This document shows positions 37,555 through 64,000 of a stretch of 64,000 nt of DNA, in pieces; position 1 is the stretch's first letter, and every line of letters starts with the position of its first letter. A program made the translations under genes and the position numbers. The DNA comes from Spirochaetota bacterium (GTDB lineage Bacteria; Spirochaetota; UBA4802; UBA5550), in the NCBI GenBank assembly GCA_963663865.1, contig OY760686.1, positions 1,408,001-1,472,000 on the forward strand, given 5' to 3'. The notes below the pieces were generated by a model. That model was not told where the DNA came from. It did not search any database and saw nothing but the letters and a program-made list of their open reading frames with translations.

Positions 37555-38292
37555 ATGAGCGTCTTGCCAGAAACACCGATTGAGGCTGCGGGAGGGCCCG
37601 GAGACATAGTAGTTGTTCGTGTCAATATCCCCCTCCTCATAAAAAATGCACTTCCGAATCTGGATCTCACTTCCGCTGCAACTCGCGGACCTGAAGAGTT
37701 TGAAGTTTCTGATTTTTGTTCAAATATTTTAACTCCCGAAGAGATTGTATCTCTCAATAATTTCAAGACATTAAAAAAACAGATTGAGTGGATTTCCGGA
37801 AGGGCCGCTGCGAAAGCGGCTCTTGCTGCCTTTAACGGAGCAGCCGGTTCCGGCGCAGCAGTCGCATACCGAGAGGGGGGGGCTCCATTCTTCCCGGGCT
37901 ATAGTAATCTTTCGCTTTCCATTACCCACTCCGGAGAGCTGGCCGCGGCAGCAGTATCATCTGATTACATGCTGGGCATTGACGCGGAGAGAATTGAGCC
38001 GCGGGATATTGGCGCAGTTATGAGAGTAGCCTTTTCAGCTGAAGAAAGGAAGATTCACAGAGATTCCGGACTTGAAGAGGTCCTGACATCATTTTGTATC
38101 AAGGAGGCATGGCTGAAGTATCTGGGCAGGGGCTTTGCCGAGAGCCCCGCTGGAGTTGAGTATCTCGACGGTGGAATTTTCTATCGCGGAAAGCGGCAAT
38201 CTGAAATCCAGCTTCAAATTGAATCTGATCAGGCAGACTATATTTTCGCGCTTATTTACGGCCCTGGTTTCGGCTGTGTTACTATTATGTAA
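37555..38292 (+). CDS. Sfp-type 4'-phosphopantetheinyl transferase
   Basis: EWISGRAAAK, GAP, SITHSG, GIDAE, FCIKEAWLKYLGRG. Confidence 0.88.
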   Translation: MSVLPETPIEAAGGPGDIVVVRVNIPLLIKNALPNLDLTSAATRGPEEFEVSDFCSNILTPEEIVSLNNFKTLKKQIEWISGRAAAKAALAAFNGAAGSGAAVAYREGGAPFFPGYSNLSLSITHSGELAAAAVSSDYMLGIDAERIEPRDIGAVMRVAFSAEERKIHRDSGLEEVLTSFCIKEAWLKYLGRGFAESPAGVEYLDGGIFYRGKRQSEIQLQIESDQADYIFALIYGPGFGCVTIM

Positions 38293-46961: not shown

Positions 46962-48783
46962 TCTTTCAACTGTTAACGGAGTGAATCCAATGGATGTTCC
47001 CGCGTCCGGTCCGGAGGATATTATCCCCCTTGATGAGAAGTGGCGGCAGGTTGTTGCCGTGCTGGACTTCGCATTTCAGCCCATAGTAAACTACTACAGC
47101 GGTTCCATCTACGCGGTCGAAGCCCTTGTGAGAAACAGCGCCGAGGCGGGTTTCAGAGGCATCTTTGATATGTTTGACCAGGCTTACAGGGACGGTGTTC
47201 TCTATTCTTTCGATCTCGCTCTTCGCGACATGGCAGTAGGCAAGTTCAGTGAGCTGCCTTTTCATTCCCGAATTAAGCTTTTTTATAACTACGACCCCCG
47301 TGTTCACGAGATGCCTGATTATTCCTTCGGCCATACTGAAAGAATACTCGACTTTTACCGTGTGTCGTACGATTCTCTCTGTTTTGAGCTTTCAGAGCAG
47401 CACCGGATAAGCTCAGTGGGTGTTTTTGGTGACTTCATCGCGAAGACAAGGGGCAGAGGCTTTAAAATAGCGATGGACGATTTTGGTGCCGGATTCGCGG
47501 GATATGAGCTCTTTTACCACTCCGAGCCGGATTTTCTAAAGGTTGACAGGTTTCTGATCAGCGGGATTGACTCTGATATGAAGAAGAAGACCTTCTGTTC
47601 TTACATAATAGGCCTGGCAAAGTTTCTCGGTGTTGTCGTCATAGCGGAAGGGATAGAAACCGAGAGCGAGTTTCTTGCATGCCGTGACCTCGGATTTGAC
47701 CTCATGCAGGGATACTTTGTGAGCAGGCCGGTTACTGACATGAGCTGTATTCAGGAGGATTATCAATGTGTCAGATCCGCTATCATTATGAAGAGAAGAG
47801 GGCCGGATGCCGGGCGTGACCTGATTGGGCGTGAGATAATGTATCTTGATCCTATCTCGGTGAACGACCCGGTTGAAATACTCTTTAAAAGGTTTAACAG
47901 AAATTCGGAGTTAAACTTTTTTCCCGTCCTCGATACGCATGGAATGCCGCTTGGGATAATCCACGAGCGCAGCATCAAGAAATACATATATTCCCCATTC
48001 GGATACGATCTTCTGCATAACACGTCGGTGACGGAGTCGATATCCACGTTTATCGAAACGTGCCCGGTCGTAGATGAATCAATGAGTCAGGAAAAGATAC
48101 TGGAGATTGTCGCGAACAGCCCTGAACTCGACGGTGTTATTGTGACTTCAGAGCTTAAGTACAGGGGCTTTCTGTCAGCGAGGTCGATTTTAAAGATACT
48201 AAACGAGAGCAATCTGGCCTACGCGAGGGAGGTTAATCCCCTGACCAAGCTTCCCGGCAATATTCTCATCTCCCGTTATATTACAGTTTCAATGCAGACT
48301 GGAGCGAAGTATTCAATTTTCTTTTACTTTGATTTCAACAACTTCAAGCCTTTTAACGACAAATACGGTTTTAGAAAAGGTGACAGGGTAATAATGCTGT
48401 TTGCCGACATCCTCCAGAAGGAGATGGGAAGCTCAGGTTACTTTATCGGGCATGTGGGGGGCGACGACTTCTTTGCGGCCTGCTCATCGTCAGTTGATGA
48501 TGTTGATGTTCATATTCAGAAGGCTGTAAAAATATCAAAGGCATTTTCAGAATCAGTGACAGCCTTTTACGACAGGAAGGATATTGAGTCAGGCTATTAT
48601 CTTTCCGTTAACAGAGGCGGGGTTATGAAACGCTACCCTCTTCTTTCGGTAAGCTCTGCGGTTTTAAGAGTCTCGCCGCGTACTGTAAGTGAAGCGGAGC
48701 TTTCCGACAGGCTTGCCGAAGTTAAGGGGCGAGCGAAGCTGGATCCTGAAAATCTGGCCTATCTTGATCTGGTTTCCAGCTAG
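46879..48783 (+). CDS. EAL-(CBS-like)-GGDEF c-di-GMP turnover protein
   Basis: FQPIV..VEALVR, MDDFGAG, KVDR, AEGIE; NPLTKLPGN, FKPFNDKYG, GHVGGDDF. True start is probably near 46953-46990. Confidence 0.92.
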   Translation: MKRCRFPLIQSTRRPPSLIRWRVFSMFNLSTVNGVNPMDVPASGPEDIIPLDEKWRQVVAVLDFAFQPIVNYYSGSIYAVEALVRNSAEAGFRGIFDMFDQAYRDGVLYSFDLALRDMAVGKFSELPFHSRIKLFYNYDPRVHEMPDYSFGHTERILDFYRVSYDSLCFELSEQHRISSVGVFGDFIAKTRGRGFKIAMDDFGAGFAGYELFYHSEPDFLKVDRFLISGIDSDMKKKTFCSYIIGLAKFLGVVVIAEGIETESEFLACRDLGFDLMQGYFVSRPVTDMSCIQEDYQCVRSAIIMKRRGPDAGRDLIGREIMYLDPISVNDPVEILFKRFNRNSELNFFPVLDTHGMPLGIIHERSIKKYIYSPFGYDLLHNTSVTESISTFIETCPVVDESMSQEKILEIVANSPELDGVIVTSELKYRGFLSARSILKILNESNLAYAREVNPLTKLPGNILISRYITVSMQTGAKYSIFFYFDFNNFKPFNDKYGFRKGDRVIMLFADILQKEMGSSGYFIGHVGGDDFFAACSSSVDDVDVHIQKAVKISKAFSESVTAFYDRKDIESGYYLSVNRGGVMKRYPLLSVSSAVLRVSPRTVSEAELSDRLAEVKGRAKLDPENLAYLDLVSS

Positions 48784-48941: not shown

Positions 48942-49064
48942 ATAATATATACAAATAAGATAAATAGGGCTGAACCACGGTTTTTTTTATTGACATCAAC
49001 CTCAAATCCGGGTGTCTGGTAAATCTTGAAAACGGACGGACGAGTCAGTCCGCAGGAGGAAAAA

Positions 49065-52000
49065 ATGATTAAGAGAATTATCAATACACCGCTGCCCTGC
49101 ATGGTTTACAATCCAGTAAAAACCGCAGATGCTTCTTACGCGGTTGCCGCCTATGAAGCCGGAGCTATGCCGGTTATTGATACCGAGTTTATCCAGACCG
49201 GGGATGTGCTGACGCTTGTGGATCAGCTTGCCGCACGGAACATTATATTCGGAGTCAGGCTGTTCGCTTCTGATACAGAGCTCATCGGCTCCCTGAGTGA
49301 AAGAAGGATAGACAACCTGGATCTGGTGGTGTTAGCCTACAGGAGGGCAGATGAGCTGTCAGGATTCGATTCATCTATGCCTTACCGGATATTCATTGAA
49401 ACAACTGATATAAACATTAATGATAAAATAGATTCAATCTCTCCGCAGGCGCTTATTGTCAAAGGCTTTGAAGGGGCAGGAAAGGTCTCGAAGTACACAT
49501 CGTATGTCCTTCTTCAGTGGTATCTTGACAAGACTTCATATCCGGTCGTCGTACACGGAGGAGTCGGGCAGTACACTGCATCGGGAATGTTCGCTGCGGG
49601 TGCGTCAGGCGTAGTACTCGACAGCCAGCTTTATCTTGCTGATGAGTCCCCGCTTTCAGATAATTTCAGAGACCTGCTCAGAAAGGTTGAGGAGAACAGC
49701 TCTTCGGTGATTGGAAAGGCAACGGGAATACCGTACAGGTTCTTTGCAAAGCTGGGCACAAAAATCGTAAAAGAGCTTAAGGAGAAGGAGAGCGTCCTTG
49801 CAGCTGAGGCTGACGGAAGCGCAAAGCTTTACAGGCTCATTGAAGAGCACTTAACTTCCATGAACGACTCATCGGCCAATACTCTTCAGTCGCTGTTCTA
49901 CCTCGGCCAGGACGGCGTCTTCTCAAAAAACTTTGTAAAAAACGGCACAAAGCTTAAAGATATGCTTCACGGCTTCTTCAAAACGGTCGGTGAGAACCTT
50001 GCGGACATCGAAGACTATGACCCGATCAGGGAGAACACAACTCTCGCCAGGGAACATGGAACCAGGTTCCCGATCGTACAGGGCCCTATGGGCAATATCA
50101 GCGACAGCCCTGATTTCGCGAAAAACGTATATGATTCAGGAGCACTCCCTTTCTTCGCTCTCGGAAATCTGCCGGTGAATCTCGCTGAGAATATGGTCAA
50201 AGGCGGAGCGGAAAAGAAGATATCTTTCGGCGCGGGAATGATAGGCATCGGGGCCATGAACAAGAGCTTTCAGGAACACATTGACATGGTGAAGAGGCAT
50301 AAGGCCCCGTTTGCGCTTTTCGCGGCCGGAATACCGGCTCAGGTTCTTGAGCTTGAAGCGGCAGGCACAAAGACCTATCTTCATACCCCTTCAATGCAGA
50401 TGCTTGAGAATGCGATGAAGAGCGGATGCTCCAGATTCATCTTCGAGGGCAATGAGGCTGGCGGCCACGTCGGCGGACAGACCAGCATGGTTCTGTGGGA
50501 GCTTGGAATGAACAGGCTCATGGAACTTGACGCTGAAAAGGTGAAAAACGTCAGAGCCGTATTCGGAGGCGGAATCGGTACCTCAAGAGGATCATGGTTC
50601 GTTTCAGGAATGACATCGTGTCTCGCGAGAAAGGGAGGGATGGTAGGTATACAGGTCGGTACGCTCTACCTGATGACCGAGGAGATCGTAAAGACAGGCG
50701 CCCTGAGCAAGGTGTACCACGAGCTTATACTGAAATCATGCGAGACAATAGTAATGGGAGAGACAGTGGGCCTCATGTCCAGAAGTCTTCCTTCTGTTTT
50801 CTCTCAGAAGATGATTGAGAATGAGCATCAGCGTATCCGCGACGGACTTCCTCTTGGCGACAGAAAGGTTGCCTTTGAGCATGACAATGTGGGAGCGCTT
50901 CTCGTTGGCGCGAAGGGCTACAGGCCAAAGTTCAATCCTGATGGAAAGGTTGAGCTGGTCAAGCATACTGAAAAAGACCAGTTCGATATGGGCAACTTCA
51001 TGGCCGGTGATTCAATCGCTTGCGAGGACAGGCAGATTAACGTTCCAGAGGTCAGCGATATCCTGATAAACAGGAAAAAAGGAATGTTCGCCAACCTTGA
51101 CCGCCTTGAAGTGATGACGAGCCGGGATTCAATTATACACGATGAGATTGCCGTTATCGGAATGGGCTGCGTGCTTCCCGATGCCGGAAGCCCGGAGGAG
51201 CTTTGGAAGAATATTCTCGATAAAAAATACTCTATTACTCGAATTGATGAAAAAAGGCTCTCTTCCGAATACTATTTCAGTGAGGACAGAAAGGCCGAGG
51301 GAAAAGCGTATTCAAGGATAGCCGGGCAGGTAAGCAATTTTAAATTTGATTACAGGAGATTCGGATTTACATCGGAAGAAGCCGGGGGGCTTTCAAGAAG
51401 CCAGCAGATGATCTTGGAATCGGCCGCAAGGGCTGCTGATGATGCTGGACTGTCGAAGGACAGTATTCCCGGTAACAGATCAGCTGTAGTAATAGGAACA
51501 TGCCTGTCAAGCGAGCTGATGAACGACCTGCTTCTCAAGTATAACTATCCCGAAATCAAATACTACATTGAACAGATTGAGGAGTTCAAGAGTCTCGACG
51601 CTAAGACGAAAAAATCCCTTCTGGAGGAATTAAAGAAGGCCGTTTCTCAGGGGCATACAGCTGAGTCTCCTGAAGGAGCCATGAACCACATGGAGGCGTC
51701 CAGAATCGCCGAATACCTGGGCATCAAAGGGCCGAATTACACGGTGGACGCCGCATGCGCGACGTCGCTTGCCGCTATCGACTCGGGAATCAAGGAGCTC
51801 AGGTCCGGGAAAAGCGATCTGGTTCTTGCCGGCGGTATAAACACTAATCTTTCTCCTGAATCCTTCATCGGCTTCTGCAAGATGGGAGCGCTCTCAGGCG
51901 AAGGGTCATATCCGTTCGATGAGAGATCAGGCGGCTTCGTGCTTGGTGAAGGTGCAGGCGTGTTCGTCCTCAAGAGGATGAAGGACGCTCTTAGAGACGG

Positions 52001-55000
52001 CGACAGAATACACGCTGTCATAAAGGCGACGGGCGCCAGCTCAGACGGAAAGGGGAAGGCAATTGCTGCTCCGAACCCTGCAGGCCAGGAATACGCGCTC
52101 AACCGTTGCTTTGAAAACATGCTGGATAACACCAGGATATCCGATGTTGATTTCATTGAATGTCATGGAACTTCCACTTTGATGGGCGACCTCGTTGAAA
52201 CGCAGACTGTAAAGAAGGTTTACAATACAGGAAAGGACGTTTACGTCAGTTCCGTAAAATCACAGATAGGCCACCTTCTGGGAGGGGCAGGCTCTGCCGG
52301 TATGCTGAAGCTCGTCATGGCTCTGAAGAACAAAATCCTTCCCCCAAACGGCCAGTTTAAAAAGCACTCACCCCGCCTTGAAATAGAGGGCACTCATATT
52401 AAGGTGGTAACTGACGCACTCGAATGGAAGAAAGCAGAAGGCCCGAGAATTGGAGCTATCAGTTCATTCGGTTTCGGCGGGATAAACTATCACTGCGTAG
52501 TCCAGGAGTTTACTGAAGGCTATACTAAGATCAGAAGGCGCATATTCTCGGAACCGTCATTCAACTACAACATGAACCGAGTGGTCATAACCGGTGTGGG
52601 AGTCAAGCTTCCCGGAGCTGAGAGCGTCGAAGAGATGTGGGCGGTTCTCGATTCCGGAAAGAGCGTGCTCGGGGCTATTCCGGAGGCCCGCTATCACGCT
52701 GAGGCTTTCACAACAGAAGAGGACTCTTTGTTCCGCCTCGCTCCCGTAAAAGCGGGTGTCATCACGGGAGATGTTGACAGCAAATCCTACCGCGTCCCTC
52801 CGGCTGCTGCAAGGGTCATTGACAGAGGACAGTTCTACGCTCTTGAGGCGGCGGGAAGGGCAATGAAGCAGTGCGGTCTTGACAAAAAGCTCGATAAGGG
52901 AAACAAAATCGCAGCAGTGTTCGGCGCCCTGACCGGCGAGATGCTGATGGAGAATGTTATACGAATCAGAATTCCGCTGCTGCAGGAGGCAATCCATTCT
53001 GTTAAGGGGCTCAGCGATTCTCTGAAAAACTCCATCTCGGAAAAGATTGCCGAGAGCCTGAAGGAGAGATACGCGGCGATAAACGAAGACACCGTTCCGG
53101 GCATGCTCAGCAACATCATAAGCGGAAGAGTCGCAAACTTCTACGGACTTAACGGAGCCAACTTCATAGTTGATGCTGGAAGCATGTCATCCGCTGTAGC
53201 GTGCAATCTCGCCATGAAGGGGCTGCAGTCAGGGGAATACGACTTCGCTCTTGCCGGCGGTGTTGAGTCCAACATTTCGGCCCCGACTATGAGGGCCTTC
53301 CAGAGAATGGGCATTATCGGCGAAAATGGCGGCTCAATCTTTGACGGGAAATCAACAGGAACAAGCCTGTCCGAGGGGGCTGTGGTTTTCGCGCTCACTA
53401 CTCTTGAAAAGGCCCTTGAGAACAACATGCCTGTTCTCGGGGAGATCAACGGCATAGCCATTGACAGCTCGGCGGGCGCCCGCTCGGGAGAGCTTTCAAC
53501 GGAAGCTCTTGTACGTTCAATGAATGACTCATTGAACAATTCTCCTCTGAAAAAGGAAGACATATCATATATTGACATATATGGGGCTTCAAGAGCGGAA
53601 TCAGATAAAAACGAAATAGCTGCCGTCGAGAGGGTTTTCGGAGCTAAGGCGGCTGTCGGAAGCTCAAAGCCGGTATTCGGCTATCTGAGATCAGCAAGCC
53701 CGGCTTTCGCAATCGCCAAGCTCATCGGCGCGAGGAAGTTCGGGAAAACACCGGGTTTCAATGCTATTAAACCCGGCGCTGCGCTGCTCAAGGCATCGTC
53801 AGCTAAAATTGAAGGCGCAATGTCGATAGGCAAACATGATTACGCTGCCGCAAATATATTCGGAATCGGCGGCAATCACGGATTTGTTGTTACGGGCGCT
53901 GTCCCTGACTGGGCTATGAAAAAGACAAGACAGTTTCCGGCCGGCGCTGTTGTGCCGAGGCCTGTCCCTCTTGCCGCTCAGCCGTCAGTAAGGGGAGGCG
54001 GAGATAAAATAACGGCGCTTCTATCCGGCCAGGGCGCTCAGCGTTCGGGCATGATGAAGGAACTCTATGAGTCTGTTTCAATTATCAGAGATACCCTTGA
54101 CCGTGGAAACGAGATATTCAGGAAGGAGCGTGGACAAAACCTCCTCGATATCATGTTCGGTGATGATCCCTCAATTAACTCGACTGAGATTACTCAACCC
54201 GCGGTATTCCTTTCGTCAGCGGCACTCTATGATTACGCCGCTTCGTCAGGGTTCTCGCCTGATTACTTCATCGGCCACAGCCTCGGCGAAATCACGGCTC
54301 TTTACTGCTCGGGAATTCTCGCTTTTGAGGATGCCATGAGGCTTGTAATAAAGCGTTCTGAGCTTATGAAGGCTGACGCCGAAAGAACAGCCGGAAGGAT
54401 TATGGTTCTGTTCAAGGGATGGGAGGAGTCTCAGGGGCTGATAGATGAATCCGGAATAAAGAACGTGTTTGTGGCCAACAAAAACAGCGAGGTCCAGACG
54501 GCTGTTTCAGGAGCGGCGGGGGATATAGACTCGTTCATGTCATATCTCAAGCAGAAGAACGTCACTTTTAAAGCACTGAACCTGTCCGGAGCGTTCCATA
54601 CTCCTTTCTATGCTCAGGCTTCGGACTCTATAAGGTTGTTCCTTAAAGATGTAAAATTCAAATCCGCTGATTACACAAAGGTAATATCAAATGTGACAGG
54701 ACTCCCTTATCCGCAAAACGAGGATGGGGTAAAGGACCTTGTAGCGAGACAGATCGTTTCGCCGGTGAACTTCATTCAGTCGGTCGGTTACGCTTTTAAC
54801 AATGGAAGCGGGCACTTCGTTGAGTTCGGCCCCGGCAGGCTTCTTGTAAACCTTCTTAAGAATATCACCCTCAATTACAGGACTGTGGAATCCGCGGTTG
54901 ATGTTAAAGCAGGCGAGCTTGCCTCACTCCGTTCATTAGATTCACACCTGAAGTCTCTGACAGGCGGGGCGGCATCTTCTGCGGCGTCGATTGCATCAGA

Positions 55001-58000
55001 CAGCAGCGACCCGGAGTTCAAGAGATTCCTTGAGGAAAAGAAAGACGAGATTAACACCTTGCTTGCCAACGAGTTTAATAAGTACAAAATGGAAGATGCC
55101 GGCAACGCGGTGAAGCGCTTCGGCTTCTACACCGGGAAAATTGTTGTTTCCGGCGCGGCAATAGGACTTCCGGGCTCCGCCAACAGGGTATTTGCCGAGA
55201 ATAACTTTGACCGTATCATCGCAGGCGAGAACTTTATTGATTCGCTCACCGCACAAGATAAGGCAGAGATGCTTAATAAAAACATCGTCAGGGTATATAA
55301 GGATCCTGCCGGCAACGCTAAGTTTATTCAGATCAGCAAAGAGGAAGAGGTTATTCAGCTTGCGGGAAAGCTCGGCTATTTCAGCCTCGCCAATGACTAC
55401 GGGATCGACTTTGAGCACGACTACCCCGAGGCGCTTGCCATGGCAGCGGGAATAGAGGCTCTGAAAGACGCGGGCATCCCGCTGGTACAGGGATTCAAAA
55501 AAGCCTCCAATGGCGCCATGATTCCAGGAGCCTATGAACTGCCGCAGGAAATGCAGGACCGCACGGGGGTAATATGCACCTCTGTATTTGCCGGACTTGA
55601 GACGTTTTCGAAGGAGCTCAGGGCTTACTATGAGCACAGGTTCCTCACTGAGCCATATGAAGAGTTCAAGAAGATGTACTACTTCATGATGGAGAAGATA
55701 TCCGATACCGGAGTCAAAGACAGGCTTACCGAATGGTTCTCGTCGCTCAGAAAGGCCGGAAGCGAAAAGGCTTACAACTTCGACAGAACCATTCTGTTCA
55801 AGATTATTAACCTCGCGCCAGCCCACTTTGCCCAGCACATTAAAGCAAAGGGGCCGAACACGCATACAAGCGCAGCCTGCGCTTCTACAACACAGGCGAT
55901 ATGTATCGCTGAAGACTGGATAAGGACCGGACGCTGCGACAGGGTTATTCTTATTGGCGGAGAAGCGGCGAATGGGGAAGGACAGGGACAGTGGATACAG
56001 TCCGGATTTTTAGCCCTCGGGGCCGCAACGGTTAAGAAGACAGTGCAGGAAGCGGCAAAGCCCTTTGACGAAGACCGCAATGGAACGATTGTCGGAAGCG
56101 GAGCAGTGGCCCTAATCATTGAGAAGGAAGAATGCGCCGTCAGACGCGGTCAAAAAGGACAGGCCGAGATTCTCGGTACATATTTCGGCAACAGCGCCTT
56201 CCACGCGACCAGAATTGACGTTGAACATGTCGCCAGAGAAATGAAGAATGCTGTAATTCAGATTGAGAAGCGTCATGGCCTTAACCGTGACGATTACGCA
56301 AGGCACATGGTTTTCATGTCGCATGAGACGTATACTCCGGCAAGAGGCGGAAGCGCGTCGGCAGAGGTAATGGCCCTGAGAGAAGCCTATCCTCAGCATT
56401 ACAGAGAAATAACAATAACCAACACAAAGGGATTTACGGGACATACCCTGGGCGCGGGAATAGAGGACGCCATACTCATCAAGGCGCTTTTAAAAGGGAA
56501 AGTGCCTCCTATTGCGAACCTTGTCAAGATTCCGCAGGAGTTTGCTGACCTTAAGTTCAGCAAGGGAGAACCGGGAGATTACAGATACGGTATGCACTTT
56601 GGTGCCGGCTTCGGTTCTCACTTTGCCTTTGCCCTGATTAAAAAAGGCCAGGAGAACTGTTTCGAGAATAACCCTGAATATACCAGGTGGTTGAAGGAGA
56701 TATCCGGAAGCGACAATCCCGAGCTTGTTGTAATGAACGGGGCCCTCTGCATCAAGTCTGCCGGGAAGCCGCTGATGCCGCGCAGGGCACCCGAGGTAAA
56801 AGCTCCGGCGTCTCAGGCTGTACAGACAGCTGTGACAGCGCCATCTGCCCCGGCAGGTGGAGCCGTTCACGCTGTGAAGGAGATCATTTCCGAGTACACC
56901 GGCTATTCTGAGGACATGCTTGATGAGAACCTCGACCTTGAAGGCGACCTCGGCATCGACACAGTTAAGCAGGTCGAGATATTCGGCGCGGTGTCTCAGA
57001 AGTTCGGTTTTGATGTGCCTGAAGACCTTAAACTCGGAGAGCTCAATACGATAGCGAAGCTCGCTGCCTACATCGCGAAGTCCGTTCCCGGACTGGCTGC
57101 TCCGTCAGCTTCGGCGCTGGTTCAGGCAGCAGCCCCCGCAGCAGCGCCTGCATCAGGCGGAGCTGTTCAAGCGGTGAAGGAGATCATTTCCGAGTACACC
57201 GGCTACTCTGAGGACATGCTTGATGAGAACCTCGACCTTGAAGGCGATCTTGGCATCGACACAGTGAAGCAGGTCGAGATATTCGGAGTGGTGTCTCAGA
57301 AGTTCGGCTTTGATGTGCCAGAAGACCTTAAACTCGGAGAGCTCAATACGATAGCGAAGCTTGCTGCATATATCGCGCAGGCCGTTCCCGGACTCGCTGT
57401 TGCTCCGTCACCATCGGCGCCGGTTCAGGCAGCAGCCCCCGCGGCAGCGCCTGCATCAGGCGGAGCTGTTCAAGCGGTGAAGGAGATTATTTCTGAGTAC
57501 ACCGGCTACGAGGTGGAGATGCTGGATGAGACACTTGACCTTGAAGGCGACCTCGGCATCGACACAGTAAAGCAGGTCGAGATATTCGGCGCGGTGTCAC
57601 AGAAGTTCGGATTTGACGTGCCGGAAGACTTGAAGTTAGGCGAGCTCAATACGATAGCAAAGCTTGCTGCATATATAGCGCAGGCTGTTCCCGGACTTGC
57701 TGTTGCTCCGTCAGTTTCGGCGCCGGTACAGGCAGCAGCGCCTGCGTCAGGCGGAGCTGTTCAAGCGGTGAAGGAGATTATATCGGAGTACACCGGCTAT
57801 GAGGTGGAAATGCTGGATGAGACACTTGACCTTGAAGGCGATCTCGGCATCGACACAGTCAAGCAGGTCGAGATATTCGGCGCGGTGTCACAGAAGTTCG
57901 GCTTTGATGTTCCTGAAGATCTTAAACTCGGCGAGCTCAATACGATAGCGAAGCTTGCTGCATATATAGCGCAGGCCGTTCCCGGACTCGCTGTTGCTCC

Positions 58001-61000
58001 GTCAGCATCGGCGCAGGTTCAGGCAGCAGCCCCCGCGGTAGCGCCTGCATCGGGTGGAGCTGCTCAAGCGGTGAAGGAGATTATATCGGAGTATACCGGC
58101 TATGAGGTGGAGATGCTGGATGAGACCCTTGACCTTGAAGGCGACCTCGGCATCGACACAGTTAAGCAGGTCGAAATATTCGGCGCGGTGTCTCAGAAGT
58201 TCGGCTTTGACGTGCCGGAAGACCTTAAACTCGGCGAGCTCAATACGATAGCGAAGCTCGCTGCATACATCGCGCAGGCCGTTCCCGGACTCGCTTCTGC
58301 TCCGTCAGCTTCAGCGCCGGTTCAGGCAGCAGCCCCCGCTGCAGCAGCACCTGCATCAGGCGGAGCGGCTCAAGCGGTGAAGGAGATTATATCGGAGTAC
58401 ACCGGCTATGAGGTGGAGATGCTGGATGAGACCCTTGACCTTGAAGGCGACCTCGGCATCGACACGGTCAAGCAGGTCGAGATATTCGGCGCGGTGTCAC
58501 AGAAGTTCGGCTTTGATGTTCCTGAAGACCTTAAACTCGGCGAGCTCAATACTATAGCGAAGCTTGCGGCTTACATCGCGAAAGAGGTTCCGGGCGCCGG
58601 TGCAGCAGTTCAGCCATCTGCGGCAGAACAGCCCGCTGTAGCGGTTGCAACTGAGGCTGGCGGATCGGGAATAAAGCGCTTTGAGGTCGGAATAGCTGAG
58701 GCGGCACCTGTTTCACAGAAGGTGAAAGACCTCAAAGGGAAGACCTATCTTGTAACGCTTGATAAATCCGGATTTTCAGACCGGGTAACTAAAAGGCTCA
58801 AAGCAATGGGCGCAAAGGTTGTAACTCTTGGAGTTAAAGGCGCCGACTACAATTCTATGGGCAGCTTCGAGAAGCTTGAGTCTGACATCAGGGCCATTGC
58901 ATCAGATGAAAGCCTGTACGGAGTTATTCACTGCGCACCTGTTGCCTGGGCAGGCAAGCCTGCTGATGAAGAGTCGATAAATGTTTCAGTCAAAAGTCTG
59001 TTCCTTATAATAAAGGGGCTCTACGGGCTGCTGAACAGAAAGGGAGGAATCATTGCAGCTCCCGCATTTGACTCTGTTGTGTTCCCGTATTCAGGAGAAG
59101 AGGCATCCATCTCGCCGGTTTCAGGAGGAGTGGCAGGAATGCTGAAGACCGCTTCAAAGGAGATGAAGGACACGGCCTGCAAGGTCGTTGACTTCAGCTT
59201 CAGGAAAGCCGGCGAGAGCTTTGACATAGCTGCCGATATCTTCATGAACGAAATCTTTTCCGGTGACAGGACAGTTGAAACCGGATACAGGGACGGCGTT
59301 AGATATAAAATATCACTGAAGGAAGCTGCGGCAGTGAAGGGCGATTTCGTACTGAAAGAAGGCGATACCGTCATAGTCACAGGCGGTGCCGGAGGTATTA
59401 CCTTTGAAATGCTCAAGGATATCGCCTCAAGAATTAATGTGAAATTCGTAATACTCGGAAGAAGCCGTATCGACGGTATTGAGCCTGACTTTATGAGGCT
59501 GGAAGCTGATGAGAGGTATATCCTGGGCAAGCTCAAGGACAGAATGCAGGGAGCCAAACCGCTTGAGCTGAAAAAAGAGGCCGGCAGAATAATCCGTGCC
59601 AGATCGGCGGCAGACAATATTGAGACGCTCAGAAAAACCGGATGCGAGGTTGAGTACCATGCCGCGGATGTCGCTGACGCTGTCTCTGTCGAAAAAGCTC
59701 TGAAGGGAATCAAAAATGCCGCTGGAATTATTCACGCGGCTGGAATTGAGGAAAGCCAGTTCATAGAAAAAAAGGAATTCTCCCAGTTCAATCGGGTATT
59801 TGATGTAAAGGTTTACGGTGCCCTTAATATTCTGAAGGCTGTGCCGAAATACAGGTTCCTGGCAACCTTCTCTTCGGTAGCTGCCAGATTCGGGAACGAG
59901 GGGCAGATTGATTACAGTTCAGCAAACGATCTTCTTTCGAAGATAGTTCTGAGAGAGAACCAGCTTAACAGCGGTAAAATATGCAAGATCATTGACTGGA
60001 CAGCCTGGGATGGCGCGGGTATGGCGACAAACGAAACCGTAATGAAGGTCCTGAAGGAGAGAGGCATGAAATTCCTTCCGTTGAAGGAAGGTGTGCGCTT
60101 CTTCATGGATGAGCTGTCAGATCCGAGAAGCATTGAAACCGCGGTAATGGGCCTCGATCTGGAATTCGACCCTGACCGTATTCTTCCGGGATCAGGTTCG
60201 CCGTCGTGCGGAAGATATCCTTTCCTGGGTACGCCAATATCCTCTGACGAAAAAAAAGCCGTCTATTCGCGTGTTCTCGATATAAACACGGACCTCTTCC
60301 TGCTTAATCACTCAAGGGAAGGAGTACCTCTGTTCCTTGGCGCTACCGGGGTTGAATCACTCGCAGAAGCATCTTCAAGGGTTATGCCGGAAGGACGCAG
60401 ACTTATCAGCCTGAAGGACTTCACGATACCCTATGGAATCAAAATTCTGCAGGGACGTCCAAAGGAGATTATGATAGAGGCCGAGGCCCTCGGAGATGAG
60501 GCTGCCTGCCGCATAGTGTCCCAGTTTAAAAACAAGGCCGGCATTGCTATGGGTGACATGACAGTTCATTACAACGGCACATGTGTTTTCAGCGGCGCCG
60601 AAGCGAAGGCAAAGAAGATAAGTCTGCCGGAATTCAAGCCGGTAACTGTTGAAGGAGATTTCCAGGAGCTTATATATCATCCTGAAAGGCTCTTTATGGA
60701 TGGCGTGTTCAGAAGTATTCAGGGAATTCTTTCTTTCGACGGCAAAAAGCTTGTTACGAAGGTGAGAAACCCTCTCAGCGGAGAATTCTTCAGGGGATGC
60801 GTTGAGCCCGAGTTTGTCACAGATCCGGTGCTCGTTGACGCAATGTTCCAGACCGGAGGTGTCGTTGAATTTCTGACTTCCGGGGTCATCATTCTTCCGT
60901 CGTCAATTCGCGTGATGAATTTTTACGCGGGTACTGAGGCGATGAAGGATTACCTGTGCATTACAGAGAAAAAACATGACGGTGAAGAGACGAACACCTT

Positions 61001-61124
61001 CGATCTCTGGCTCACAGACGAAGCGGGAAATGTCTTCGTTGAGGTTCTCGATTTTCAGATGATCAAGATTAAGGGAACATCAGGAGACACAAATCTAAAA
61101 AATAGAATTAGGACGTCGTTCTGA
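49065..61124 (+). CDS. Single-chain Pfa-like iterative type I fatty acid/polyketide megasynthase (ER*-ER-KS-CLF-AT-KS-ACPx6-KR-DH)
   Basis: RBS AGGAGG before ATG 49065. FabK/PfaD-like domains (QGPM, EAGGH); KS with DAACATS/HGTST/GHLLG; Cys-less KS (DAGS); AT with GQGAQ/GHSLG/AFH; second KS with SAACAS/SHETYT/GHTLG; six LGIDT ACPs; KR with TGGAGGI/YSSAN; DH with NHSREG/DAMFQ. Confidence 0.93.
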   Translation: MIKRIINTPLPCMVYNPVKTADASYAVAAYEAGAMPVIDTEFIQTGDVLTLVDQLAARNIIFGVRLFASDTELIGSLSERRIDNLDLVVLAYRRADELSGFDSSMPYRIFIETTDININDKIDSISPQALIVKGFEGAGKVSKYTSYVLLQWYLDKTSYPVVVHGGVGQYTASGMFAAGASGVVLDSQLYLADESPLSDNFRDLLRKVEENSSSVIGKATGIPYRFFAKLGTKIVKELKEKESVLAAEADGSAKLYRLIEEHLTSMNDSSANTLQSLFYLGQDGVFSKNFVKNGTKLKDMLHGFFKTVGENLADIEDYDPIRENTTLAREHGTRFPIVQGPMGNISDSPDFAKNVYDSGALPFFALGNLPVNLAENMVKGGAEKKISFGAGMIGIGAMNKSFQEHIDMVKRHKAPFALFAAGIPAQVLELEAAGTKTYLHTPSMQMLENAMKSGCSRFIFEGNEAGGHVGGQTSMVLWELGMNRLMELDAEKVKNVRAVFGGGIGTSRGSWFVSGMTSCLARKGGMVGIQVGTLYLMTEEIVKTGALSKVYHELILKSCETIVMGETVGLMSRSLPSVFSQKMIENEHQRIRDGLPLGDRKVAFEHDNVGALLVGAKGYRPKFNPDGKVELVKHTEKDQFDMGNFMAGDSIACEDRQINVPEVSDILINRKKGMFANLDRLEVMTSRDSIIHDEIAVIGMGCVLPDAGSPEELWKNILDKKYSITRIDEKRLSSEYYFSEDRKAEGKAYSRIAGQVSNFKFDYRRFGFTSEEAGGLSRSQQMILESAARAADDAGLSKDSIPGNRSAVVIGTCLSSELMNDLLLKYNYPEIKYYIEQIEEFKSLDAKTKKSLLEELKKAVSQGHTAESPEGAMNHMEASRIAEYLGIKGPNYTVDAACATSLAAIDSGIKELRSGKSDLVLAGGINTNLSPESFIGFCKMGALSGEGSYPFDERSGGFVLGEGAGVFVLKRMKDALRDGDRIHAVIKATGASSDGKGKAIAAPNPAGQEYALNRCFENMLDNTRISDVDFIECHGTSTLMGDLVETQTVKKVYNTGKDVYVSSVKSQIGHLLGGAGSAGMLKLVMALKNKILPPNGQFKKHSPRLEIEGTHIKVVTDALEWKKAEGPRIGAISSFGFGGINYHCVVQEFTEGYTKIRRRIFSEPSFNYNMNRVVITGVGVKLPGAESVEEMWAVLDSGKSVLGAIPEARYHAEAFTTEEDSLFRLAPVKAGVITGDVDSKSYRVPPAAARVIDRGQFYALEAAGRAMKQCGLDKKLDKGNKIAAVFGALTGEMLMENVIRIRIPLLQEAIHSVKGLSDSLKNSISEKIAESLKERYAAINEDTVPGMLSNIISGRVANFYGLNGANFIVDAGSMSSAVACNLAMKGLQSGEYDFALAGGVESNISAPTMRAFQRMGIIGENGGSIFDGKSTGTSLSEGAVVFALTTLEKALENNMPVLGEINGIAIDSSAGARSGELSTEALVRSMNDSLNNSPLKKEDISYIDIYGASRAESDKNEIAAVERVFGAKAAVGSSKPVFGYLRSASPAFAIAKLIGARKFGKTPGFNAIKPGAALLKASSAKIEGAMSIGKHDYAAANIFGIGGNHGFVVTGAVPDWAMKKTRQFPAGAVVPRPVPLAAQPSVRGGGDKITALLSGQGAQRSGMMKELYESVSIIRDTLDRGNEIFRKERGQNLLDIMFGDDPSINSTEITQPAVFLSSAALYDYAASSGFSPDYFIGHSLGEITALYCSGILAFEDAMRLVIKRSELMKADAERTAGRIMVLFKGWEESQGLIDESGIKNVFVANKNSEVQTAVSGAAGDIDSFMSYLKQKNVTFKALNLSGAFHTPFYAQASDSIRLFLKDVKFKSADYTKVISNVTGLPYPQNEDGVKDLVARQIVSPVNFIQSVGYAFNNGSGHFVEFGPGRLLVNLLKNITLNYRTVESAVDVKAGELASLRSLDSHLKSLTGGAASSAASIASDSSDPEFKRFLEEKKDEINTLLANEFNKYKMEDAGNAVKRFGFYTGKIVVSGAAIGLPGSANRVFAENNFDRIIAGENFIDSLTAQDKAEMLNKNIVRVYKDPAGNAKFIQISKEEEVIQLAGKLGYFSLANDYGIDFEHDYPEALAMAAGIEALKDAGIPLVQGFKKASNGAMIPGAYELPQEMQDRTGVICTSVFAGLETFSKELRAYYEHRFLTEPYEEFKKMYYFMMEKISDTGVKDRLTEWFSSLRKAGSEKAYNFDRTILFKIINLAPAHFAQHIKAKGPNTHTSAACASTTQAICIAEDWIRTGRCDRVILIGGEAANGEGQGQWIQSGFLALGAATVKKTVQEAAKPFDEDRNGTIVGSGAVALIIEKEECAVRRGQKGQAEILGTYFGNSAFHATRIDVEHVAREMKNAVIQIEKRHGLNRDDYARHMVFMSHETYTPARGGSASAEVMALREAYPQHYREITITNTKGFTGHTLGAGIEDAILIKALLKGKVPPIANLVKIPQEFADLKFSKGEPGDYRYGMHFGAGFGSHFAFALIKKGQENCFENNPEYTRWLKEISGSDNPELVVMNGALCIKSAGKPLMPRRAPEVKAPASQAVQTAVTAPSAPAGGAVHAVKEIISEYTGYSEDMLDENLDLEGDLGIDTVKQVEIFGAVSQKFGFDVPEDLKLGELNTIAKLAAYIAKSVPGLAAPSASALVQAAAPAAAPASGGAVQAVKEIISEYTGYSEDMLDENLDLEGDLGIDTVKQVEIFGVVSQKFGFDVPEDLKLGELNTIAKLAAYIAQAVPGLAVAPSPSAPVQAAAPAAAPASGGAVQAVKEIISEYTGYEVEMLDETLDLEGDLGIDTVKQVEIFGAVSQKFGFDVPEDLKLGELNTIAKLAAYIAQAVPGLAVAPSVSAPVQAAAPASGGAVQAVKEIISEYTGYEVEMLDETLDLEGDLGIDTVKQVEIFGAVSQKFGFDVPEDLKLGELNTIAKLAAYIAQAVPGLAVAPSASAQVQAAAPAVAPASGGAAQAVKEIISEYTGYEVEMLDETLDLEGDLGIDTVKQVEIFGAVSQKFGFDVPEDLKLGELNTIAKLAAYIAQAVPGLASAPSASAPVQAAAPAAAAPASGGAAQAVKEIISEYTGYEVEMLDETLDLEGDLGIDTVKQVEIFGAVSQKFGFDVPEDLKLGELNTIAKLAAYIAKEVPGAGAAVQPSAAEQPAVAVATEAGGSGIKRFEVGIAEAAPVSQKVKDLKGKTYLVTLDKSGFSDRVTKRLKAMGAKVVTLGVKGADYNSMGSFEKLESDIRAIASDESLYGVIHCAPVAWAGKPADEESINVSVKSLFLIIKGLYGLLNRKGGIIAAPAFDSVVFPYSGEEASISPVSGGVAGMLKTASKEMKDTACKVVDFSFRKAGESFDIAADIFMNEIFSGDRTVETGYRDGVRYKISLKEAAAVKGDFVLKEGDTVIVTGGAGGITFEMLKDIASRINVKFVILGRSRIDGIEPDFMRLEADERYILGKLKDRMQGAKPLELKKEAGRIIRARSAADNIETLRKTGCEVEYHAADVADAVSVEKALKGIKNAAGIIHAAGIEESQFIEKKEFSQFNRVFDVKVYGALNILKAVPKYRFLATFSSVAARFGNEGQIDYSSANDLLSKIVLRENQLNSGKICKIIDWTAWDGAGMATNETVMKVLKERGMKFLPLKEGVRFFMDELSDPRSIETAVMGLDLEFDPDRILPGSGSPSCGRYPFLGTPISSDEKKAVYSRVLDINTDLFLLNHSREGVPLFLGATGVESLAEASSRVMPEGRRLISLKDFTIPYGIKILQGRPKEIMIEAEALGDEAACRIVSQFKNKAGIAMGDMTVHYNGTCVFSGAEAKAKKISLPEFKPVTVEGDFQELIYHPERLFMDGVFRSIQGILSFDGKKLVTKVRNPLSGEFFRGCVEPEFVTDPVLVDAMFQTGGVVEFLTSGVIILPSSIRVMNFYAGTEAMKDYLCITEKKHDGEETNTFDLWLTDEAGNVFVEVLDFQMIKIKGTSGDTNLKNRIRTSF
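56857..58592 (+). repeat. Six tandem ~300-bp ACP-coding repeats with Ala/Pro-rich linkers
   Basis: Near-identical AVKEIISEYTGY...DLGIDTVKQVEIFG...LNTIAKLAAYIA units; Thr codons at 56961, 57261, 57564, 57855, 58158 and 58464. Confidence 0.97.
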
Positions 61125-61196: not shown

Positions 61197-61925
61197 ATGA
61201 ATCACGTCAGACTTGAAAGCGTCGACTCAACCAACAGCTATATAAGAAGAACGCCGTCTCTTCTGGCTGAAAAGTGCGTGCTCGTGTCAGCGCGAGAACA
61301 GACATCCGGCCGGGGCAGGGATGAACGCTCCTGGTATTCAAGGCCGGGGCTGGACCTGACTTTTTCGATGTCCTTCAGAACGGACTGCCGGACATCCGAT
61401 GTTCCGGCCTTCACCGCGGCCGCCGGGGTTTCACTATACAGGGCGGTAAGACCGCTTGTCGGGGAAGGCCTTTTTTTGAAGTGGCCGAATGATCTCTATT
61501 TCAAAGGCCGAAAGCTCTCGGGCATACTGTGCGAGTTTGTACAGGAAGGGGATATTCAGGCCGTTATCGTCGGCATTGGAATCAATGTCAGGGCGGGCGC
61601 TTTCTGTCAGGCGATTGCCACGGAAGCTGTTTCGCTTGAAGAGGCCGCAGAACGGAGCTTTGAGCTTGATTCGCTGCTCTATCTAATAAGCAGCCGTTTG
61701 AGAGATGAGCTTGTTGCTTTTTCGGGTCAGCTCGATAAAAACACCTGCGAAGACTGGATTGAATTTTCAGACCGGGACCGCGTGGTGATGACTGAGATGA
61801 AAGGGGTTTTGCGAAGCGGATACATTGCCGCCCTCAACCCTGACGCGTCGCTGAGAATACAGGACGCTGAGACAGGACAAATAAACAATTACAGAGGCGA
61901 GGTATTTTATGCCGGCGAAAGGTAA
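61197..61925 (+). CDS. birA: Biotin-[acetyl-CoA carboxylase] ligase (no N-terminal HTH)
   Basis: SVDSTN, QTSGRGR, KWPNDL, KLSGIL, GIGIN. Confidence 0.94.
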   Translation: MNHVRLESVDSTNSYIRRTPSLLAEKCVLVSAREQTSGRGRDERSWYSRPGLDLTFSMSFRTDCRTSDVPAFTAAAGVSLYRAVRPLVGEGLFLKWPNDLYFKGRKLSGILCEFVQEGDIQAVIVGIGINVRAGAFCQAIATEAVSLEEAAERSFELDSLLYLISSRLRDELVAFSGQLDKNTCEDWIEFSDRDRVVMTEMKGVLRSGYIAALNPDASLRIQDAETGQINNYRGEVFYAGER

Positions 61926-64000
61926 ACATACTGGCGAAGCGATGAAAGGGGCGGTCCTTCCCGCGCTCACTGATACGGAAAAGCAGGATTTCAATAAATC
62001 ACTGGAATACCTGAAGAAGCTGAACGTATCTGCTGACGGGAGGAGTTCAACTGAGCCCGCGCGGAAGGAAGGTAAGCTGAAGAAGGTCCTTATTGCCAAC
62101 AGGGGGGAAATAGCCAAAAGGTTTTTTCTGGCGCTCCATGAGGAGAATATTCCTTCAGTGGCAGTAATCACAGACGCCGACAGGGGTCAGAGCTGGTATG
62201 AATTCGCCGACGAGGAGCTGTATATCGGCGCCAATGAGAACTACACAGGTATCAACATAATTATTGCTGCTGCGGTCCTCTCGGGCGCAAATGCGATATA
62301 TGCGGGTTACGGCTTCCTGTCTGAAAATCACGGCTTCGTAAAGCGGATCAGGCAGATTTCAGAATGGCTCGGCACTGAATTGATATTTATGGGACCGCGC
62401 TATGATGTAATGGAGGTCATGGGTGATAAGATCAGTGCCCGTGAGGTAGCTCGTAAAAACGGGGTACCTCTCTTCGAAAGCTCCGACGCTTTAAGCGACA
62501 GCGATATAGACCACGTTAAAAAAGAAGCCGCAAGAATCGGCTATCCGGTAATCATTAAACTCTCAGCGGGAGGCGGGGGCAAGGGAATGTACCCTGTGTT
62601 CTCTGAGGGCGAAATTGAGTCGGCTGTCCAGTCGACATGCCGGATAGGACGCGAGCTGTATAATGACAGCTCATTCTATATGGAAAAGTTTATACAGCGG
62701 CCTGTTCACATAGAGGTGCAGGTTTTCAACGGCAGCGCTATTGGAATCAGAAAATGTGCGGTTCAGAGACGTAATCAGAAGATAATCGAAGAGAGCGGCC
62801 ATACATTTCTGGAAGATCATCAGTTTATGTCGTTTCTCTCATCAGCTGAAAGGCTTGCGATTGCTTCAGGTTATTCGGACGGTTGCGGCGCCGGTACGGT
62901 TGAGTTTCTTATAGACAGTGAGAACGGAAGCTTCGGTTTCATGGAGATGAATACAAGGCTTCAGGTCGAGTATGCTGTGACTGACCAGTCACTCGGCATA
63001 GACCTTGTCAAGTGGCAGATTATGTTCTACGACGGACGGGGTAATGAAATTGCTAATCCCCAGATGATGAAGTACAAGACCCTTGACCGCTATCATTCAA
63101 TCGAGTGCCGAATATACGCTGAAGACCCGGAGAATGACTATCTGCCTTCGCCGGGTTCAATTGTTGAGGTAGATCTTCCCACCTTCAACGGAATCAGGTG
63201 CGACTTCGGATTTACAAAGGGCGATAACATTCTGCCGATGTACGATCCTATGATAGGAAAGCTGATCGCACACGGCAGCACGAGGCGTGAAGCGATAATC
63301 AGGCTGGAAAGGGCCCTGCAGGAGTTCTACGTTAAGGGAATCAAGACGAACACCAACCAGTTGCTGCAGATAGTAAGGCATCCTGAATTTCAGGACGGAG
63401 GTTACTCAAACAAGCTGCTTGACGATAATCCGGAGCTTCAGTTTAAGGCCGAAGCTGAAAAAAACAATGCCTGCTCTTCGGCTGATACCATTGAACCGGT
63501 AATATTCGGGGCATTCTGCGAATACATTTCGGCTCTGCACAGGGCCGCCCAGGATTACGCGGTCATAGTCTCGCTTGAGGGGGCCGGCAACGCTCCCGCG
63601 GTTACTCTGCCTCCAGCAGCATTTACTGTTCAGTACAGGGGGGGCAGCAGCAGGGTTGATTTTCTGCAGACAGAAATTGACAGCTTTATCGTCTCTCTTA
63701 ACGGTGTTAATCACGGCAGGGTGACGCTAAGCTACTTCAATGACAGGGACGATGATTTTATTGTTCAGTACGGCACTGGCTCAAAAAGGATAAGGTGCGA
63801 AAGACAGTCCGACATGCTTGTGGTCAAGCTACGTGACTCGCAGAACAAAGCTAATTACCACAGGATGCTTATTGTCCCCGAGGGGCAGGGCGCAGCGGCC
63901 AATGAAGGACTTGTGAAGTCTCCATTTCAGGGGACATTTGTCTCGCTTGGAAGTGCCGGCCTTGAGGTTGGCGCAGATGTTAAGGCTGGAGACCCGCTGA
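61909..64000 (+). CDS. Biotin carboxylase fused to biotin carboxyl carrier domain (3'-truncated by window; absent from ORF track)
   Basis: Translation from ATG 61909 gives KKVLIANRGEIA, GYGFLSEN, GGGGKGM, QRRNQKIIEE, EMNTRLQVE and YDPMIGKLI. It ends in VKSPFQGTF...VGADVKAGDPL, the start of a BCCP domain. Confidence 0.92.
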   Translation, partial: MPAKGKHTGEAMKGAVLPALTDTEKQDFNKSLEYLKKLNVSADGRSSTEPARKEGKLKKVLIANRGEIAKRFFLALHEENIPSVAVITDADRGQSWYEFADEELYIGANENYTGINIIIAAAVLSGANAIYAGYGFLSENHGFVKRIRQISEWLGTELIFMGPRYDVMEVMGDKISAREVARKNGVPLFESSDALSDSDIDHVKKEAARIGYPVIIKLSAGGGGKGMYPVFSEGEIESAVQSTCRIGRELYNDSSFYMEKFIQRPVHIEVQVFNGSAIGIRKCAVQRRNQKIIEESGHTFLEDHQFMSFLSSAERLAIASGYSDGCGAGTVEFLIDSENGSFGFMEMNTRLQVEYAVTDQSLGIDLVKWQIMFYDGRGNEIANPQMMKYKTLDRYHSIECRIYAEDPENDYLPSPGSIVEVDLPTFNGIRCDFGFTKGDNILPMYDPMIGKLIAHGSTRREAIIRLERALQEFYVKGIKTNTNQLLQIVRHPEFQDGGYSNKLLDDNPELQFKAEAEKNNACSSADTIEPVIFGAFCEYISALHRAAQDYAVIVSLEGAGNAPAVTLPPAAFTVQYRGGSSRVDFLQTEIDSFIVSLNGVNHGRVTLSYFNDRDDDFIVQYGTGSKRIRCERQSDMLVVKLRDSQNKANYHRMLIVPEGQGAAANEGLVKSPFQGTFVSLGSAGLEVGADVKAGDPL

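Follow-up and report, generated by a model that had tools for sequence, protein, structure and literature searches.

Six tandem acyl carrier protein (ACP) domains with Thr at the position of the phosphopantetheine-accepting Ser are encoded in the 64,000-nucleotide stretch of DNA analyzed here (the window; positions 1,408,001 to 1,472,000 of contig OY760686.1, assembly GCA_963663865.1, from a Spirochaetota bacterium). They belong to a megasynthase of 4032 residues (49026..61124, + strand, counted from TTG 49026). To our knowledge, textbooks, motif definitions and annotation rules all treat Ser as the only acceptor of 4'-phosphopantetheine (Ppant), and its replacement by Thr serves as a dead-ACP control. 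The Thr carriers are a real, conserved and apparently unreported deviation at one of the most invariant sites of biosynthetic enzymes. It is likely that their Thr hydroxyl is phosphopantetheinylated by an Sfp-type phosphopantetheinyl transferase (PPTase), with the six ACPs functioning as those of PfaA do. For the family at large, it is fairly probable that O-(4'-phosphopantetheinyl)-threonine is the natural, widespread and obligatory carrier chemistry of a clade of fatty acid synthases (FAS) resembling polyunsaturated fatty acid (PUFA) synthases, with co-evolved Sfp-type PPTases that are in some cases fused to the synthase. So defined, the clade comprises synthases of two architectures, with all-Thr clusters numbering at least 83 in the 146 best further representatives at 50% identity, and it would include the sole FAS both of this spirochaete-like organism and of cultured Desulfobacterales.

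Threonine at the carrier site

All six ACP domains read DLGIDTVKQVEIF. Their Thr codons, five ACA and one ACG, lie in frame at exactly the positions originally predicted (Table 1) and encode residues 2646, 2746, 2847, 2944, 3045, and 3147. A degenerate D-L-G-I-D-T pattern had six matches, all on the + strand (56946, 57246, 57549, 57840, 58143, and 58449), with none expected from 100 shuffles. The six stretches were recognized as carriers by Pfam PF00550 (PP-binding; 182.7 bits for a cut-off of 20.8), while the Ser that marks the Ppant acceptor of carrier proteins in (D)S(L/I) was replaced by Thr in 6/6 domains. The linkers between the ACPs are rich in Ala and Pro. The copies are 81–92% identical in DNA, with 287 synonymous and 134 non-synonymous codon comparisons. 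As synonymous differences exceed the others, every copy is under purifying selection; the non-synonymous differences were judged by eye to lie mostly in the linkers. Reassignment of ACN by an alternative genetic code was considered and dropped, since the remainder of the 4032-residue frame reads normally. We know of no genetic code that reassigns ACN. Other contigs aligned to the region break within the ACP repeat; among the alignments listed, none has a different letter at 56961-56963, an observation that was given no weight.

The Thr occupies the canonical Ppant site. In an alignment with solved ACPs, it falls on their Ppant Ser (DLGVDSI in PigH, DLGADSL in Aquifex, DLDIDSL in AcpM). In an AlphaFold2 model of ACP 3 (pLDDT 83.5), helices span residues 5–20, 41–55, and 71–81, and Thr41 opens helix II. 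This model superimposes onto solved ACPs with TM-scores of 0.71–0.83 (Foldseek). The predicted fold is that of a carrier protein, a helical bundle with the putative attachment residue at the N-terminus of helix II. Across 26 aligned ACPs, the block D36-L-G-I-D-T41-V-K-Q44 is invariant, and no further invariant Ser or Cys was found in the domain.

Conservation was examined in homologues of the whole protein, which is of the so-called Type S. The best 120 of 972 matches were retained, including the protein of the window itself, leaving 119 homologues with 42–51% identity. These come from Desulfobacterales (including Desulfobacula toluolica, Desulforapulum autotrophicum HRM2, Desulfospira, Desulfobacter, and Desulfoluna) and from metagenome-assembled genomes (MAGs) of Spirochaetes. 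A hidden Markov model of the six ACPs found 395 Thr and 3 Ser sites in the 119 homologues; the total was 410 domains in 121 stored proteins (407 Thr, 3 Ser), the query being stored twice. The number of ACP copies ranges from 1 to 8, and the motif of 13 residues that surrounds the Thr hardly varies over about 400 domains. Of the three Ser sites, that of P0009 is a simple T-to-S replacement in the same context (DLGIDSVKQ), and the other two (P0053 and P0115) are in extra, divergent C-terminal ACPs. Ser in close orthologues, which the original prediction had named as evidence against itself, is thus confined to these cases. An extra C-terminal Ser ACP of this kind (ELGIDSMKMVEICQ-like) was observed on some proteins with a Thr array, namely P0053 and P0115, which are longer (4385–4494 residues), and P0125, of 752 residues. 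It may be an added off-loading module.

A search with an alignment (A1) of the third ketosynthase-like domain (KS'), hence unbiased with regard to the ACPs, gave 572 relatives in genome_contigs, of which 80 loci were kept. ACP matches were present in 75 of them. All 212 scorable ACP sites have Thr, encoded by ACG (117), ACC (54), ACA (28), or ACT (13), and 8 further ACP matches were partial and unscorable. Because it is conserved family-wide despite synonymous codon turnover, the Thr is a family trait and not a lesion, as had been surmised from the window.

Thr-type ACPs extend beyond Type S. In the genomes of 40 relatives, five Type S orthologues were found together with a second family of synthases of about 3000 residues, with the domain order KS-AT-KS'-ACPn-KR-DH, whose ACPs likewise have Thr (SDLGIDTVKQAE[LM]F). 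A search with a single ACP in 1.84 billion representatives yielded 4851 matches with E ≤ 1e-3, including 2111 with E ≤ 1e-10. The best 150 of the 4851 were used; four were already stored, leaving 146 others. Of these proteins, 83 are all-Thr, 55 all-Ser (PfaA-type, DLGIDSIKRVEIL), 2 mixed, and 6 partial or degenerate; counted by domain, Thr occurs 345 times, Ser 285 times, and another residue or a gap 7 times. These proportions are biased, as the list was ranked by likeness to a Thr-type query.

A tree of 158 ACPs (109 Thr and 49 Ser rows) was built after removal of the trait column. It is short and poorly resolved, and requires about 4 changes between Ser and Thr, compared with a mean of 42 with shuffled labels. 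The Thr-type ACPs group beside the PfaA-type Ser ACPs, which are their nearest relatives. Ser in a Thr-like context was found in P0191, P0236, P0264, P0206, and P0164, the first three of which share DLGIDSVKQ with P0009. The attachment column is almost exclusively Ser or Thr. Toggling between these two residues, and almost nothing else, is the pattern expected if the hydroxyl is the functional group, and the sequence data support a functional equivalence of Thr-type ACPs to Ser carriers.

Linkage of Thr-type synthases to PPTases

The candidate priming enzyme is encoded upstream of the megasynthase, where Pfam confirmed the identity of the Sfp-type PPTase that had been recognized in the window. 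Only two PF01648 matches are present in the genome, this enzyme and AcpS. Across 24 sequences, the motifs G-R, S-x-x-H, D-x-E, and K-E-A-x-x-K do not vary (D143, E145, K183, E184, A185, and K188 in the last two motifs). The enzyme resembles PPTases of the Sfp/HetI/AcpT type in these motifs and in having ACPS and 4PPT_N domains. It differs from them in that it matches curated models only weakly (HetI, 42 bits for a cut-off of 370), that its proposed partner carriers have Thr, and that, in the sister family of synthases, the PPTase is often a C-terminal fusion partner of the synthase.

Genes for Sfp-type PPTases are found next to Thr-type synthases. In the family of about 3000 residues, such a gene lies directly downstream of the synthase in 4/4 fetched loci. 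Near a Type S orthologue, one lies directly upstream in locus L012, and 18 of the 80 Type S loci hold a PPTase gene. Where the downstream flank measures 900 bp or more (57 loci), 15 have the gene on that side, mostly at a distance of 4–363 bp; on the upstream side, 2 of 50 evaluable loci have it. The linkage goes as far as fusion: a C-terminal PPTase was found in 15 representatives whose detected ACP sites are all of the Thr type (apart from a single partial or degenerate match, reading G, D, or Q, in each of 3), and in one Ser-type protein, P0164. Pfam confirmed the fused PPTase in all four proteins checked (P0183, P0221, P0238, and P0164). Since fusion to a synthase with only Thr-type sites detected is otherwise hard to explain, the Thr ACPs are taken to be the substrate of the fused enzyme. 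Two of the fused synthases, the Ser-type P0164 and the Thr-type P0226, are labeled in their source as from archaeal MAGs (Heimdallarchaeota and Thermoplasmatota, respectively); the label could reflect a binning error or gene transfer.

A tree of PPTases places the Type S-linked enzymes, including the PPTase of the window, in a single clade (SH-aLRT 100). The PPTase of the window is sister (SH-aLRT 91) to the one that L021, the most closely related locus, encodes 157 bp upstream of its synthase. Exclusive co-occurrence of the PPTase with Thr carriers was not supported and was discarded: homologues of the PPTase of the window are present in four relatives without a match to a Thr-ACP synthase (G004, G006, G032, and G038), and the PPTase of the Ser-type P0164 falls among the PPTases of Thr-type fusions.

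A predicted complex of the PPTase with CoA, Mg, and an ACP scored 0.89 (0.89–0.90 in three runs), compared with 0.00 for the best control; 58 of 80 solved complexes attain the mark for this score, as do 2 of 110 mismatched pairs, but the model used its own alignments and riding ligands, which places it outside the calibration. The runs agreed on at least 98% of contacts, with a partner pLDDT of at least 87, and ACP residues 40–42 were modeled in contact with PPTase residues 145 and 184. As PPTase-carrier complexes have already been solved, the score may reflect mere likeness to them.

Fatty acid synthesis in the genome and competing explanations

The genome consists of one contig of 3.16 Mb and is 98% complete. 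The three KS domains and the acyltransferase (AT) of the megasynthase are its only PF00109 and PF00698 matches; FabF/B and FabD are absent. No match to FabA/FabZ (PF07977) was found in the megasynthase or the genome, and no FabH C-domain, PlsX, or LpxC was found in the genome. Because there is no other KS or AT, and no FabA/Z, FabH C-domain, or PlsX, the megasynthase is the only recognizable FAS and, judging from gene content, appears to be the sole fatty acid synthase of the organism; it seems essential to its host. The position of the gene before birA and a carboxylase agrees with this role. Among the relatives, G002, G008, G010, and G019 have the synthase and no PF07977 match, and G026 has both. 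Most of the same-family relatives (G001–G040) show neither FabA/Z nor the megasynthase, an absence from which it is concluded that they are probably fatty-acid auxotrophs. The megasynthase is patchily distributed, and horizontal transfer between Desulfobacterales and Spirochaetota may account for this.

That no Ser-type ACP exists in the window was borne out by a whole-genome search with PF00550, which gave no other match there. Outside the window, three Ser carriers and AcpS are encoded: an acpP-like protein, the ACP of a fusion between an AMP-ligase and a PlsC-type acyltransferase, and a DltC-like protein. The fusion is Aas-like by eye and suggests that free fatty acids are salvaged in addition to being made de novo. 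A stand-alone Ser-ACP acting as the real carrier would have spoken against the original prediction; such a protein does exist, next to rnc, and nothing suggests that it replaces the tandem domains.

A similar situation has been described in Desulforapulum (Desulfobacterium) autotrophicum HRM2, whose cluster was listed by Shulse and Allen (2011; PMC3098273) as an uncharacterized Type S secondary lipid synthase, possibly the core FAS since HRM2 lacks fabA and fabZ. The spirochaete genome likewise lacks both genes and has a Type S synthase. Full-length homology links the megasynthase to the HRM2 protein (P0111; 46% identity, 72% query coverage, E = 0), which bears 3 Thr-ACPs. The words threonine and serine are absent from the main text of PMC3098273, so that the Thr went unnoted in that part of the article. 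No natural Thr Ppant site, nor the motif strings, was found in the literature searched, which left out most subscription journals, so that prior publication is possible; text searches of PMC11744666 and bioRxiv 2025.01.28.635281 retrieved nothing relevant.

The nearest curated NCBIfam model is that of PfaA (TIGR02813, omega_3_PfaA), for which the megasynthase scores 979.7 bits, below the cut-off of 1010.1. Its ACP-KR-DH part aligns with model positions 1267–2546. Tandem ACPs followed by a ketoreductase (KR) and PS-DH, and the motif frame DLGID-x-[IV]K, are common to both, but the ACPs of the megasynthase have Thr for Ser and VKQ-E-F for IKRVEIL. Compared with the Pfa synthase as a whole, the tandem ACPs, the pair formed by a KS and a chain-length factor (CLF), the KR, the PS-DH, and a PfaD-like enoylreductase (ER) are shared. 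Unlike the Pfa synthase, the megasynthase fuses the ER, KS-CLF, AT, and an extra KS' in one chain and lacks the FabA-like dehydratase/isomerase domains of PfaC.

The megasynthase is proposed to be an iterative, PUFA-synthase-like type I FAS of the Type S kind, with the six tandem ACPs as working carriers like those of PfaA. Ppant would be attached to the Thr hydroxyl of D-L-G-I-D-T-V-K-Q, in place of the canonical Ser, by the dedicated Sfp-type PPTase of the window with CoA as donor. Malonyl loading, condensation, reduction, and dehydration would then take place on the thiol of Ppant, in the manner of PfaA-type synthases. Ppant-Thr may keep the carriers orthogonal to AcpS and AcpH; this orthogonality, or a greater stability of the phosphodiester, are guesses as to why Thr is preferred.

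Several points weigh against this proposal. The Ppant on Thr, the PPTase responsible, and the product are inferences. The linkage to PPTases is frequent and not universal: of the 57 Type S loci with downstream flank, 42 have no PPTase on that side, the PPTase of the window is 10.7 kb away from the megasynthase, and the four relatives mentioned above have homologues without a Thr-ACP synthase match. The complex model is blind to Thr versus Ser. Both AcpS and an acpP-like gene of the Ser type persist in the genome. In E. coli, the S36T variant of ACP cannot take 4'-phosphopantetheine and is non-functional (PMC3340395), which implies that at least AcpS-type priming rejects Thr. The substitution and its position are the same as here, but the E. 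coli protein is an engineered, dead apo-mimic, whereas the Thr of the megasynthase is natural and conserved.

The E. coli variant would fit the idea that the Thr-ACPs are pseudo-carriers that stay unprimed and serve in structure or docking, acyl chains being carried in trans by the acpP-like protein after priming of its Ser (GIDSIDMVEL) by AcpS. The presence of these two genes in a genome devoid of type II FAS enzymes would fit as well. We nevertheless consider this unlikely. The 13-residue Thr motif, which is the helix recognized by PPTases and partner enzymes, would not need to be nearly invariant in about 400 domains, nor its attachment column to tolerate only Ser or Thr. The variation from 1 to 8 copies is that of PfaA arrays tuned for throughput, the Ala/Pro-rich linkers are typical of mobile carriers, and PPTases are fused to synthases with only Thr-type sites detected. 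Spirochaete relatives without FabA/Z and synthase are common, and a use of acpP and acpS in salvage fits the Aas-like fusion. Decay of the gene, or an error of sequencing or assembly, is hardly credible and was rejected: the frame is open over 12.1 kb and the Thr recurs with synonymous variation in hundreds of independent assemblies, in keeping with the initial view that pseudogenization was improbable.

Priming of the Thr by AcpS, or promiscuously, with the PPTase of the window serving other carriers such as the Aas-like fusion and the DltC-like protein, is quite unlikely. The enzyme is indeed not adjacent to the megasynthase, and three Ser carriers of the genome need priming, but its closest homologue is adjacent to the synthase in the nearest locus, it belongs to the Type S-linked clade, and E. 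coli AcpS rejects S36T. Very unlikely is a tether of another kind, either a different prosthetic group (for example phosphoribosyl-dephospho-CoA of the citrate lyase type) or direct acyl oxo-esters. Ppant on Thr has no known precedent, which on sequence alone leaves room for another chemistry; however, the linked or fused enzymes are Sfp-type PPTases with all Mg and CoA motifs intact, the KS, AT, KR, and DH are standard thioester-dependent domains, and a sister protein of the same architecture (P0164) uses Ser. The original prediction had proposed either Ppant-Thr or a different tether. Conservation, the Ser/Thr column, the linkage and fusion to PPTases, and the sole KS and AT back Ppant-Thr, and the other tether has gained no support.

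Ppant-Thr, if true, would add a new protein modification and would make a PUFA-synthase-like type I enzyme the primary FAS of many sulfate reducers and some spirochaetes. The scoring of carrier domains in genome mining would change, as tools that require Ser would call Thr ACPs inactive. The PPTase/carrier pairs might be orthogonal to AcpS and Sfp, and useful for labeling and pathway engineering. Since cultured hosts exist (among them Desulfobacula toluolica, Desulforapulum autotrophicum, and Desulfocicer vacuolatum), Ppant-Thr is directly testable by routine mass spectrometry.

Domain organization and neighboring genes

The domain order of the megasynthase, ER(NMO)-KS-CLF-AT-KS'-6xACP-KR-DH (NMO, nitronate monooxygenase), was deduced from Pfam matches and active-site motifs (Table 1). 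The KS, AT, and KR motifs had been described as intact, and all were found. The second KS-like domain is predicted to be CLF-like, because the active-site Cys is absent. The KS' domain sits between the AT and the ACP array and is common to Type S and to the KS-AT-KS'-ACPn-KR-DH family of about 3000 residues; its AEDWIRTGR and FMSHETYTPARGGSA blocks are invariant. No thioesterase domain was seen in the megasynthase. The database copy of the protein (P0002) has 4019 residues, which suggests that the true start is ATG 49065 and not TTG 49026.

Table 1 Features of the megasynthase, its surroundings, and carrier-related genes elsewhere in the genome (window positions unless a genome position is given)
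Feature	Coordinates	Strand	Evidence or remark
Sfp-type PPTase, proposed priming enzyme	37555..38292	+	Pfam ACPS + 4PPT_N
ER-like region, N-terminal (nitronate monooxygenase/PfaD-like)	49026..51100	+	Best Pfam stretch residues 412-587
KS1	51141..52358	+	Pfam, motif; active-site Cys in DAACATS, residue 908
Second KS-like domain	52572..53414	+	Motif; GSMSS at residue 1385, no Cys
Acyltransferase (AT)	54021..54863	+	Pfam, motif GHSLGE; sole PF00698 match in genome
KS' (third KS-like)	55143..56756	+	Motifs; Cys in SAACAST, family motifs AEDWIRTGR and FMSHETYTPARGGSA
ACP 1	56871..57074	+	Thr codon ACA 56961-56963
ACP 2	57168..57374	+	Thr codon ACA 57261-57263
ACP 3 (modeled domain)	57471..57677	+	Thr codon ACA 57564-57566
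ACP 4	57762..57968	+	Thr codon ACA 57855-57857
ACP 5	58065..58271	+	Thr codon ACA 58158-58160
ACP 6	58371..58577	+	Thr codon ACG 58464-58466
Ketoreductase (KR)	59367..60011	+	Pfam, motif YSSAN at residue 3630
PKS-type dehydratase (PKS_DH_N + PS-DH)	60219..61070	+	Pfam
Biotin-protein ligase (birA-like), directly 3' of megasynthase	61197..61925	+	Pfam
Biotin carboxylase, N-terminal part of large carboxylase	61909..63999	+	Pfam; reading frame leaves window
AMP-ligase - ACP (Ser) - PlsC-type acyltransferase fusion	genome G000:C1:787033-789567		Aas-like by eye
acpP-like Ser ACP, 77 residues	genome G000:C1:1365601-1365834		GIDSIDMVEL; directly upstream of RNase III-like reading frame (rnc)
AcpS	genome G000:C1:2674890-2675261		Outside window

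Pfam confirmed that the megasynthase lies directly upstream of birA and a carboxylase, as had been noted. The order synthase-birA-carboxylase recurs in the Spirochaetota loci L021 and L022. The open reading frames (ORFs) homologous to the carboxylase are about 5.2–5.8 kb long in Spirochaetota loci (L021, L022, L031, L034, and L039), two of them reaching the end of the fetched locus. The downstream carboxylase is probably a very large single-chain enzyme.

The region between the PPTase and the megasynthase encodes a hybrid sensor kinase, a LUD-domain protein, three minus-strand ORFs, a methyl-accepting chemotaxis protein (MCP), and an EAL-GGDEF protein. As listed, the ORFs of the MCP (45255-46961) and of the EAL-GGDEF protein (46879-48783) overlap by 83 bases, and the true start of the latter probably lies further downstream.

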